From NCBI RefSeq assembly GCF_000026545.1, contig NC_011601.1: a stretch of 64,000 nucleotides of DNA; one strand, written 5' to 3'. Numbering within the stretch: position 1 is the stretch's first letter; each line of letters starts with the position of its first letter. The notes below the pieces were generated by a model. It was not told the DNA's origin, made no database searches, and saw only the letters and a program-made list of their open reading frames with translations. A program made the translations under genes and the position numbers. The stretch is from Escherichia coli O127:H6 str. E2348/69. GTDB taxonomy: Bacteria; Pseudomonadota; Gammaproteobacteria; Enterobacterales; Enterobacteriaceae. Of the stretch, positions 62,078 through 64,000 are shown piece after piece.

Positions 62078-62548
62078 ATGACAAAATCATGGAGCGTACC
62101 TTTTCCTGAATCAGAAACTGAACATGAGGGAATGCCTGTTTTCTGGAGATTCCAGGCGACAGTTGAAGAAGATGGAATCAAAATATTCGCACTTCAATAT
62201 ATAGCTTTTCATCAGACAGAGCATTATGCATGGTTGGTTCCTGCGCATTGGATTGTTAATTTTAAACCAGCACCAAATCAGTGGTTACAGGAATGGAAAC
62301 AAAAGAGAAATAGATATGCAATTAAGAAAGTAGCAAAAAATGCAGAAAGATCTTTTGCATTCCCAACGAAGAAACTTGCCATTGAAAGTTTATTGCGCCG
62401 AAAGAAATACCATTTAATGAGAATCAAACAAGATTTGGCTGTTGTATCAACTCTTGTTGATGGGATGAAGAATATTGATACATCAACACCAGATATTGAA
62501 TATAACTTTGGACACAACCAAGAAACAGAAAATTGGGTATTCTACTAG
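62078..62548 (+). CDS. Early-left operon hypothetical protein
   Basis: 156 aa, AT-rich, follows N. Confidence 0.5.
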   Translation: MTKSWSVPFPESETEHEGMPVFWRFQATVEEDGIKIFALQYIAFHQTEHYAWLVPAHWIVNFKPAPNQWLQEWKQKRNRYAIKKVAKNAERSFAFPTKKLAIESLLRRKKYHLMRIKQDLAVVSTLVDGMKNIDTSTPDIEYNFGHNQETENWVFY

Positions 62549-62594
62549 GCCGCATAGTCGGCCTTTATTTTTGGCATAAACAACAGAGGCTAAC

Positions 62595-62891
62595 ATGGGA
62601 TTTAAAGGTACTGAAGGTAAGTGGGAAATAATGATGGATGGGGATGAGATTAAAATCATCCAGGCAGACTCTCTTGAAAATGGCACAGGCTGGCGTTCGT
62701 ATATTGCAATCTGTGAGGAAGTTCAATGTATTGAAGATGCCAATCTAATAGCGGCAGCACCTGACCTTCTCGAAGCACTTCAGTTATTACTTAATCAATC
62801 CAAAAATAGAACAACGACAACATATCCAGAATGGTATGGAGCTGTTAATAAAGGTCTTGCAGCAATCAGAAAAGCTCTTGGGGATAAGTAA
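62595..62891 (+). CDS. Early-left operon hypothetical protein
   Basis: 98 aa ORF with AGAGG RBS. Confidence 0.5.
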   Translation: MGFKGTEGKWEIMMDGDEIKIIQADSLENGTGWRSYIAICEEVQCIEDANLIAAAPDLLEALQLLLNQSKNRTTTTYPEWYGAVNKGLAAIRKALGDK

Positions 62892-63079
62892 TGAAAGTAA
62901 AAATAACTGCTTCTAACACCAGTTTTATTAGTGTTGGTGATATTACAGAAGTAATAACAAACCATGATGGAACCCAAGTTATGTGGTCTGATCTTTGTAA
63001 AAGATATGAGCGAGTTAGTTGGTGTAAACTCGTATGGGGCGTCGAATACGAAGAAATACCTGAAATGCATGACGAATAA
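62891..63079 (+). CDS. Early-left operon small hypothetical protein
   Basis: 62 aa, start overlaps the previous stop (ATGA). Confidence 0.4.
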   Translation: MKVKITASNTSFISVGDITEVITNHDGTQVMWSDLCKRYERVSWCKLVWGVEYEEIPEMHDE

Positions 63080-63213
63080 GCACTGTGTATTCATTCCAAC
63101 GAGTGAATACACGGAGCAATGTCGCTCGTAACTAAACAGGAGCCGACTTGTTCTGATTATTGGAAATCTTCTTTGCCCTCCAATGTGAGGGCGATTTTTT
63201 TAACGGAGGATAT

Positions 63214-64000
63214 ATGAGTGAAGTAACAGATTTAGTTGTTATTGAAAAAGCAAATGCAATGACTGTATTTCAGTCTGCCGACCAGATTGAAGAAATCCTT
63301 CAAAAGGTTGAACGTGAAGTTATGTCCTTTGTGCCTGATATCACAACGGCAAAGGGCAGAAAGGAGATCGCTTCTCTGGCGTATAAAGTTGCGCAGACGA
63401 AAACATATCTCGATGGCCTTGGCAAAGACCTTGTTGCTGAACTGAAGGAAATTCCAAAGCTAATTGATGCCAACCGCAAGACAGTGCGCGATCGCCTTGA
63501 TGAGCTGAAAGCCAAGGCGCGCCAGCCTCTTACTGATTATGAGGAAGAACAGGCGCGGATTAAAGCCGAAGAAGAAGCTAAGGCAGCAGCTGAAGCTCTC
63601 GCAAAGCAAATTGAGTCTGACCATGAAATAGCGATTTTGATGGATCGCGAATTTGACCGCCAAAGAGAAGAGGCAAGACTCAAAGCGGAGCAGGAAAAGC
63701 GAGAGCATGAAGAACGCTTAAAAAGAGAAGCTGAAGAGAAAGCCAGAGCAGAAGCCGAAGCAAAGGCAAAAGCCGAAATTGAAGCAGCAGCAAGGCGAGA
63801 AGCAGAAGCTAAGGCCGCAGCGGAACGTGCAGAGCGTGAACGCATTGAAGCCGAGCAACGAGCACAGCGCGAAGCAAAAGAGGCAGCAGAACGAGCTGAA
63901 AGAGAAAAGCAGGCGGCAATTGAAGCAGAACGCCGAAAAGCACAGGAGGAGGCTGAACGAATCCGGCGCGAGGCTGAAGCAAAAGAGCAAGCCAGAATAG
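63214..64000 (+). CDS. Coiled-coil charged-repeat protein, 3' end beyond window
   Basis: ATG 63214 with GGAGGA RBS; frame 1 stays open to position 64000; E/A/K/R-rich helical repeats; absent from the ORF track because no stop lies within the window. Confidence 0.6.
   Translation, partial: MSEVTDLVVIEKANAMTVFQSADQIEEILQKVEREVMSFVPDITTAKGRKEIASLAYKVAQTKTYLDGLGKDLVAELKEIPKLIDANRKTVRDRLDELKAKARQPLTDYEEEQARIKAEEEAKAAAEALAKQIESDHEIAILMDREFDRQREEARLKAEQEKREHEERLKREAEEKARAEAEAKAKAEIEAAARREAEAKAAAERAERERIEAEQRAQREAKEAAERAEREKQAAIEAERRKAQEEAERIRREAEAKEQARI

Follow-up and report, generated by a model that had tools for sequence, protein, structure and literature searches.

The closest described relative of the gene considered here is agt of phage phi80 (Lula), which is annotated in the phi80 record as 'anti-toxin for Gam; Mog (modifier of Gam)' and is followed by gamL, annotated as 'toxic without Mog'. 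The annotation is said to go back to Rotman and colleagues in 2012, and apart from that source no paper discussing agt was found in the literature searched. Here, we analysed positions 62,078 to 64,000 of a 64,000-nucleotide stretch of Escherichia coli O127:H6 str. E2348/69 (RefSeq assembly GCF_000026545.1, contig NC_011601.1), hereafter the window, to which coordinates refer unless another locus is named. The region belongs to a prophage of lambdoid type in this enteropathogenic E. coli (EPEC) strain, to which the window matched at 100% identity, and it carries three small open reading frames (ORFs), orf156, orf98 and orf62, followed by a long gene that runs past the end of the window and that we call the agt-like gene. 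The Agt family is already known and barely studied, and the E2348/69 protein is now placed in it. The explanation of the whole region that we favour, with somewhat better than even confidence, is a mosaic lambdoid PL operon consisting of a slot for exchangeable cargo and of an Agt-family member that heads the recombination (Rec) module and has a tempering role.

The identity of the long protein was established by comparison with phi80 Agt (gp39, YP_007947961.1), to which it is 51% identical over 322 aa in BLASTP (E 4e-65), 322 aa being the length of both proteins, and by its match to phrog_1376, the family that includes phi80 Agt (E 1.9e-79). The N-terminal domain taken separately was 41.5% identical to that of phi80 Agt, 100% identical to that of gp33 of Shigella phage Sf6 and 55% identical to that of orf53 of Pseudomonas phage D3. 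Since both the N-terminal and the C-terminal domain are matched, the protein is very probably a full-length member of the Agt family. A first-pass annotation, made from the letters of the sequence, had recognised no family for any of the four proteins of the region; this stood for Pfam, which gave zero matches for all four, and for NCBIfam and PADLOC, which gave weak sub-threshold matches only, and it fell for the long protein, which has a named homolog in phi80.

The family is widespread. A tblastn search of phage genomes with the N-terminal 117 residues returned 191 records (Escherichia, Shigella, Klebsiella, Erwinia, Pseudomonas, Vibrio and others), and a profile built from the N and C domains recovered 5,638 representatives at 50% identity with E-values up to 0.001, 4,691 of them with E-values up to 1e-10. 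Most of the 5,638 representatives matched in two separate stretches, so that the three-part architecture is conserved in the family. An Agt-like N domain was also present in 508 of 5,426 complete E. coli genomes.

The reading frame that starts with the ATG at 63214 is still open where the window ends, and the sequence downstream was read from the E. coli E2348/69 record NZ_CP059840.2, which is 100% identical over 2.4 kb around the region; 30 kb of this record were taken as locus L001, in which the window coordinate equals the L001 coordinate plus 47599. In the source genome the gene is a 969-base coding sequence for 322 aa (WP_000005784.1) with its stop at the window-equivalent position 64182, 182 bases past the window, and it is followed by a normal cIII and then by kil. 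The agt-like gene is intact and is not a pseudogene: as had been supposed from the letters, the frame is open-ended by the window edge alone, and no interruption appeared when the sequence was extended beyond 64000.

The description of its product as a long helical protein rich in Glu, Ala, Lys and Arg was also borne out, residues 118-277 being composed of 29% Glu, 26% Ala, 16% Arg and 10% Lys, with 9% of large hydrophobic residues. This segment has no consistent heptad register and contains 25 opposite-charge i/i+4 pairs versus 12.8 ± 2.6 in shuffled sequences; judged by its sequence, it looks more like an ER/K-type single helix than like a classical coiled coil. It is followed by a conserved C domain (residues 278-322), which lies beyond the window. 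Close homologs range from 245 to 333 aa, and in them the N-terminal ~117 and the C-terminal ~45 residues are almost invariant, all insertions and deletions falling in the central charged segment. In 40 sequences of 34-58% identity the residues R49, K63, G70, K71, D85, R88, L95, P105 and E110 were invariant, and among 40 diverse members further conserved basic residues, R275 and H281, were found near the C terminus. As a separate observation, the same 245-333 aa range is found with near-identical N and C domains (homologs P0005, P0016, P0018 and P0099 included) and a weak periodicity of 6 bases (AGAAGC, about 14 copies) is seen in the DNA at 63726-63809; the length variation and the periodicity together suggest a repeat-driven expansion and contraction of the spacer.

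The AlphaFold (AF2) model of the protein, with a mean predicted local distance difference test score (pLDDT) of 85 and a predicted template-modelling score (pTM) of 0.37, consists of two short helices, a helix from 46 to 176, a helix from 189 to 295 with a low-confidence break between these two, and a short C-terminal helix. The N domain is modelled as the two short helices and the start of the long helix, with pLDDT values of 81-90. According to the model, the charged helix may fold back as a hairpin that joins the N and C domains into one head, an arrangement that would explain the joint conservation of both ends and the variable middle.

In order to describe the genomic context of the family, two sets of loci were used. 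The first consisted of 80 viral contigs with a relative and of annotated records, giving 85 loci in 29 clusters at 90% identity of the Agt-like protein; the second came from a scan seeded with D3 orf53 and comprised 80 Pseudomonas-type loci (L089-L168), so that the two sets together held 165 loci. Annealing-protein types were checked against PHROGs, and the sole contig found for one distant homolog was too short for context. In 27 of the 29 clusters the Agt-like gene had a gene for a single-strand-annealing protein downstream, the measured distances being 0.2-2.1 kb, and the two exceptions were a 1.4-kb contig without downstream room and one Vibrio phage. The annealing proteins were of the Erf, Rad52-like, RecT, Bet-like and Sak4-like types. 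Throughout the second set (80 of 80 loci) the annealing protein abutted the stop codon of the Agt-like gene, half of the proteins being Bet-like (40; phrog_252) and half ERF (40). A YqaJ-type exonuclease gene comes next in D3 and in the D3-type loci that were inspected, and the D3 record has no annotated Gam-type inhibitor adjoining.

A gene for GamL (phrog_1050) or a Gam-like protein (phrog_259), where present, begins a few bases from the stop codon of the Agt-like gene or overlaps it. Where no Gam gene adjoins, the loci have Abc2 downstream at 1.5-2.9 kb, a Mu Gam-like gene or no recognisable inhibitor. The cluster of the window protein itself (44 loci, at least 90% identity) occurs with annealing proteins of the Erf, RecT, Sak4 and Rad52 types and with Abc2, a Mu Gam-like gene or neither. 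The occurrence of one Agt variant together with so many annealing and inhibitor types makes a conserved host target, or DNA, likelier as its object than a single phage partner.

On account of the homology to Agt and of the position at the module in nearly every locus, the Agt-like protein is best read as a recombination-module accessory and not as a new anti-defence or exclusion gene. The first-pass annotation had counted the long protein among candidates of the latter kind, and for this protein the idea did not hold up: its homology and its position in the Rec module are those of a recombination accessory.

In the mechanism that we propose, the region would be the delayed-early part of the PL operon in a mosaic lambdoid prophage, with the agt-like gene as the promoter-proximal member of the phage Rec module. 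Transcripts would begin at a lambda-type PL, read through N and pass both intrinsic terminators of the region with the help of N. The head formed by the N and C domains would bind either a host DNA-end-processing target or the end-directed factors of the phage itself and, the charged helix serving as a spacer, would temper the harm that such factors do to the cell (compare GamL in phi80), and recombination-dependent replication could then proceed without the host being killed too early. A moderating role is suggested by the phi80 phenotype, namely the relief of GamL toxicity; the tempering of end-directed phage damage as the specific mechanism is put forward tentatively, and our confidence in it is low.

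Several points weigh against this interpretation. The only evidence on what the family does is a single annotation, that of the phi80 record. A GamL or Gam-like gene was sought in the E2348/69 prophage and is absent, and most family members are also without GamL, so that 'antitoxin for Gam' cannot be the general function of the family. The Vibrio phage mentioned above carries a family member and no recognisable annealing protein downstream, and a 2025 survey of the Rec modules of 325 lambdoid phages, which explicitly asked about unrecognised Rec-module genes, does not mention this gene. Sequence and structure searches pointed to neither a partner nor a DNA-binding activity of the Agt family; structure searches with the model found no fold relative outside the family, and a sequence search of solved structures gave only chance matches to flagellin and to coiled coils. 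The hairpin is itself uncertain, given the pTM of 0.37 and the pLDDT of 45-52 around residues 171-190, and the packing of the helices is not confident.

Among the other explanations, a serious rival holds that the long protein acts directly in recombination, either as a mediator or loader of the annealing protein or as a DNA-end-binding factor; we regard it as possible, on the doubtful side. Agt-like genes adjoin annealing proteins of unrelated folds, often without a nearby RecBCD inhibitor, and other genes hold the same position elsewhere: in Firmicutes phages, DUF1351, Mu Gam-like and Gp157 genes are found directly upstream of erf-ssb or sak4 modules, and the authors of that survey infer analogous functions for them (PMC8093625). 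An Oenococcus phage likewise has its DUF1351 gene directly upstream of an annotated phage nucleotide-binding gene. The long protein nevertheless has no sequence or profile similarity to DUF1351, and some loci carry an Agt-like gene in addition to a Mu Gam-like one. The residues conserved in the N and C domains are often basic (R49, K63, K71, K78, R88, R92, R103, R115, R275, H281), which counts in favour of a direct role, but the net charge of the N domain is -2, which counts against it. The Oenococcus locus, in phage phiS13 (L087 3413-5614), comprises a confirmed DUF1351 gene, the nucleotide-binding gene, which we read as Sak4-like, and a gene for 'prophage Lp2 protein 18'.

The agt-like gene and the features that precede it are listed below in window coordinates.

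59618-60331, + strand: cI repressor gene, lambda/HK97 type (RefSeq annotation and ORF list)
61636-62019, + strand: N antiterminator gene, 933W/H-19B type, 127 aa (phrog_271, 'anti-termination protein N-like', E 3e-39)
62078-62548, + strand: orf156, 156 aa, homolog of 933W L0079 (ORF list; phrog_1636)
62547-62574, + strand: intrinsic terminator, tL1-like, directly 3' of orf156 (stem and T tail)
62595-62891, + strand: orf98, 98 aa (ORF list; phrog_1273)
62891-63079, + strand: orf62, 62 aa (ORF list; phrog_10407)
63173-63204, + strand: intrinsic terminator shortly before the agt-like gene (stem and T tail)
63214-63564, + strand: agt-like gene, N-terminal domain, residues 1-117 (phrog_17211, E 1e-75)
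63565-64000, + strand: agt-like gene, Glu/Ala/Arg/Lys-rich helical region, residues 118-262 within the window

The order on the + strand is thus cI, two small genes, a terminator, the leftward operator and promoter (OL/PL), N, orf156, a terminator, orf98, orf62, a terminator and the agt-like gene. Past the window end come cIII, kil, a short arf-like ORF (phrog_2123) and the gene of an Erf-type annealing protein (phrog_1097), followed by genes for an HNH nuclease, a single-stranded DNA-binding protein (SSB), Abc2 (phrog_656) and a DUF2737 protein, with Abc2 2.2 kb downstream of the agt-like gene. The HNH endonuclease gene, between the Erf-type gene and ssb (L001 17838-18305, downstream of the window), is missing or located elsewhere in many otherwise similar loci, as expected of a mobile nuclease gene inserted into a Rec module.

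The N gene had been described as N-like and not of the lambda type, and this was confirmed: its DNA is ~98% identical to N of 933W, the 933W/H-19B type, and its RefSeq name is 'transcriptional antitermination N peptide'. The control region as a whole (59618-62019) is a hybrid, being 96-98% identical to lambda and HK97 from cI up to PL and of the 933W/H-19B type in N; its operator motifs, as read from the sequence, look lambda-type. Between cI and OL/PL two overlapping small genes occupy the position of rexA-rexB in lambda and of gp48-gp49 in HK97 (60339-61134, + strand, with a terminator at 61140-61161). Their products have 145 aa (phrog_5893) and 123 aa, the latter called 'hemolysin XhlA' in some sources. 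The pair was not found together with this cI in any phage record, coverage being at most 58%, and a PADLOC search gave nothing significant for the two proteins; we note them as candidate exclusion or defence genes expressed in the lysogen.

The stem of the terminator at 62547-62574 is G+C-rich and six pairs long (AGGCCG/CGGCCT), with TTATTTTT after it (L001 14948-14965 plus the T tail), and in the mEp234 record terminators are annotated in the homologous region. The terminator at 63173-63204 has an eight-pair stem (TTGCCCTC/GAGGGCGA) followed by TTTTTTT (L001 15574-15595 plus the tail). At the same place, before gene 33, the Sf6 record has a 'terminator tL2A' and a 'bsq4 boundary sequence'; the second terminator of the window corresponds to tL2A and marks a mosaic boundary. 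In lambdoid N systems, genes beyond such terminators rely on N-mediated antitermination. By reference to these systems, the genes past the two terminators of the window would be expected to need it as well.

The three small genes that had been placed after N were found where the first-pass annotation had put them, on the + strand and with the lengths of 156, 98 and 62 aa. Each ORF is preceded by a Shine-Dalgarno-like sequence (GAGGTGA, AGAGG, GGAGG), and the one-base overlap between orf98 and orf62 (TAATG) suggests translational coupling. All four genes of the region, the long one included, match PHROG families end to end with E-values from 7e-31 to 1.5e-111; no PHROG family was matched by the opposite-strand and small intergenic ORFs of the region, and an Rfam search of the region found nothing. 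The AT-richness ascribed to the small genes is real, the GC content of 62078-63213 being 38.3% versus 50.1% in the window, which is among the lowest 1.4% of equal-sized windows.

The largest of the three, orf156, matches phrog_1636 over its full length (E 1.5e-111). Its family forms 33 clusters at 90% identity, from Enterobacterales, every one of them named hypothetical, and 42 columns were invariant in 20 sequences down to 55% identity. The AF2 model of its product was poor (pLDDT 55) and unsuited to structure search. As to orf98 (phrog_1273, E 7e-31), tblastn returned 57 phage records: lambdoid and P22-like phages gave full-length matches, and ~145-kb virulent phages of Klebsiella, Salmonella and Cronobacter matched over residues 2-52. 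The orf62 protein (phrog_10407, E 1e-44) corresponds also to the C-terminal part of phrog_16117, and its homologs in T4-like Krischvirus phages such as RB49, Phi1 and JSE are 55-59% identical. The homologs of orf62 and orf98 in virulent phages point to small accessory genes that are exchanged between temperate and virulent phages.

Among the 44 loci with a long gene at 90% identity or more to that of the window, the three ORFs upstream of it were drawn from 43 families in 41 arrangements, ral and Sf6 gp34 being among the families and orf98 being present in 13 of the loci, sometimes beside ral. The slot, bounded by N and the second terminator, is a hypervariable accessory hot spot, and the view of the region as an early-left segment of a lambdoid prophage with accessory genes is in this respect well founded. 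The complete orf156-orf98-orf62 block was found in 11 of the 5,426 complete E. coli genomes, and parts of it in 1,030; its rarity, together with the variable neighbours, fits interchangeable accessory cargo. By their conservation and arrangement, orf156, orf98 and orf62 are evidently real conserved genes and swappable cargo. No match to Ral, SieB, Kil, Gam, Abc2 or Ea10 was found for any of the three in PHROGs, Pfam, NCBIfam or PADLOC, and when Sf6 ral and gp34 served as BLASTP references, the ORFs that they labelled in the related loci were others than these three. An anti-defence or host-takeover role of the three small ORFs is possible.

These results bear on two further readings, one of which extends the recombination-accessory reading. 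It supposes that the Agt family is an unrecognised fifth component of the Rec module, alongside the annealing protein, the exonuclease, SSB and the RecBCD inhibitor, that would act on a conserved host target in DNA-end processing or repair whichever annealing protein and inhibitor are present, and that at least one of the small ORFs is a new defence inhibitor. If this were so, the 'antitoxin for Gam' phenotype of phi80 would be one facet of a conserved activity on the host target; we consider the combined proposal speculative and rather unlikely to hold in full.

Somewhat less probable still, in our judgement, is that the segment forms an island of anti-defence or host-takeover genes, in which the small ORFs and perhaps the long protein block restriction or defence or exclude other phages. 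The hypervariability of the slot, which elsewhere holds the restriction-alleviation gene ral beside orf98, its GC content within the lowest 1.4% of the window and the scarcity of the exact block, although its parts are far more frequent, are in keeping with such an island, and the homologs of orf62 and of the N-terminal half of orf98 in virulent phages fit host-directed functions that are independent of lysogeny. However, the searches of PHROGs, Pfam, NCBIfam and PADLOC matched no anti-defence or defence family, a recent accessory-gene screen has none of the four sequences in its supplementary files, and the long protein goes with Rec modules and not with the variable slot. It is highly improbable that the long protein is an envelope protein of the TolA kind, perhaps for superinfection exclusion or lysis. 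In favour of this are the names 'cell envelope biogenesis protein TolA' and 'colicin import membrane protein', which it bears in many sources, but these are owed to amino-acid composition alone. Against TIGR02794 the protein scores 9.7 bits versus a cut-off of 59.45 (E 0.45), and only its charged helix overlaps with the model; the sequence has no hydrophobic N-terminal anchor segment, and the RefSeq name is now just 'coiled-coil domain-containing'. With a score so far below the cut-off and with neither a membrane anchor nor the C-terminal domain III, identity with TolA was rejected, and the TolA or 'cell envelope biogenesis protein' label should be dropped from the hundreds of genome records that carry it.

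Taken as a whole, the first-pass interpretation was partly supported. The region is in the main ordinary for a lambdoid prophage, with one modest lead, in that a large family may have been overlooked as a Rec-module accessory. The Agt family comprises ~5,600 clusters at 50% identity, the sole functional clue to which comes from one phage. Its genes stand almost invariably before those of annealing proteins, whatever the type, and this points to a general accessory role in recombination or in the handling of host RecBCD. Such a role, if true, would be relevant to the design of recombineering tools and to defences that monitor RecBCD. The three small ORFs are reasonable, unproven candidates for anti-defence screening.

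Returning to the reading of the long protein as a recombination accessory at the head of the Rec module, the locus can be set beside the known systems, from the more distant to the nearest. ER/K single-helix motifs and domain II of TolA share with it a long Glu/Ala/Lys/Arg-rich helix with a surplus of i/i+4 opposite-charge pairs. DUF1351 proteins are similar in having ~300 aa and in being encoded directly upstream of an annealing-protein/SSB module, the analogy being positional only. Homology to DUF1351 (PF07083) was rejected, as there was no Pfam match for the protein or for 40 diverse relatives, and hhalign against an Oenococcus DUF1351 alignment gave a probability of 0.1%, the template alignment being shallow.

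The 933W homolog of orf156, L0079, comes immediately after N, and in that phage the slot just before cIII is taken by Ea10 ('ssb', phrog_646, 122 aa), a protein unrelated to Agt; Ea10 and the agt-like gene look like positional alternatives before cIII. The 933W stretch from L0079 to Ea10 and cIII (L088 3979-4968) was seen in a phage that has lambda-type gam-bet-exo. D3 resembles the locus of the window in that its family member, orf53, stands at the head of the Rec module, directly before the ERF and YqaJ exonuclease genes; D3-type members differ in having 354 aa and in adjoining the annealing protein without cIII and kil in between. The phi80 system corresponds in the length of Agt, in its N and C domains, in the PHROG family, in the operon and in the position at the head of the Rec module, whereas the genes that follow differ, agt being succeeded in phi80 by gamL, recT and exo and here by cIII, kil, the arf-like ORF, erf, the HNH gene, ssb and abc2. 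In Sf6, finally, the order of the tL2A terminator, gene 33, cIII, kil, erf, ssb and abc2 is essentially the same as in E2348/69.

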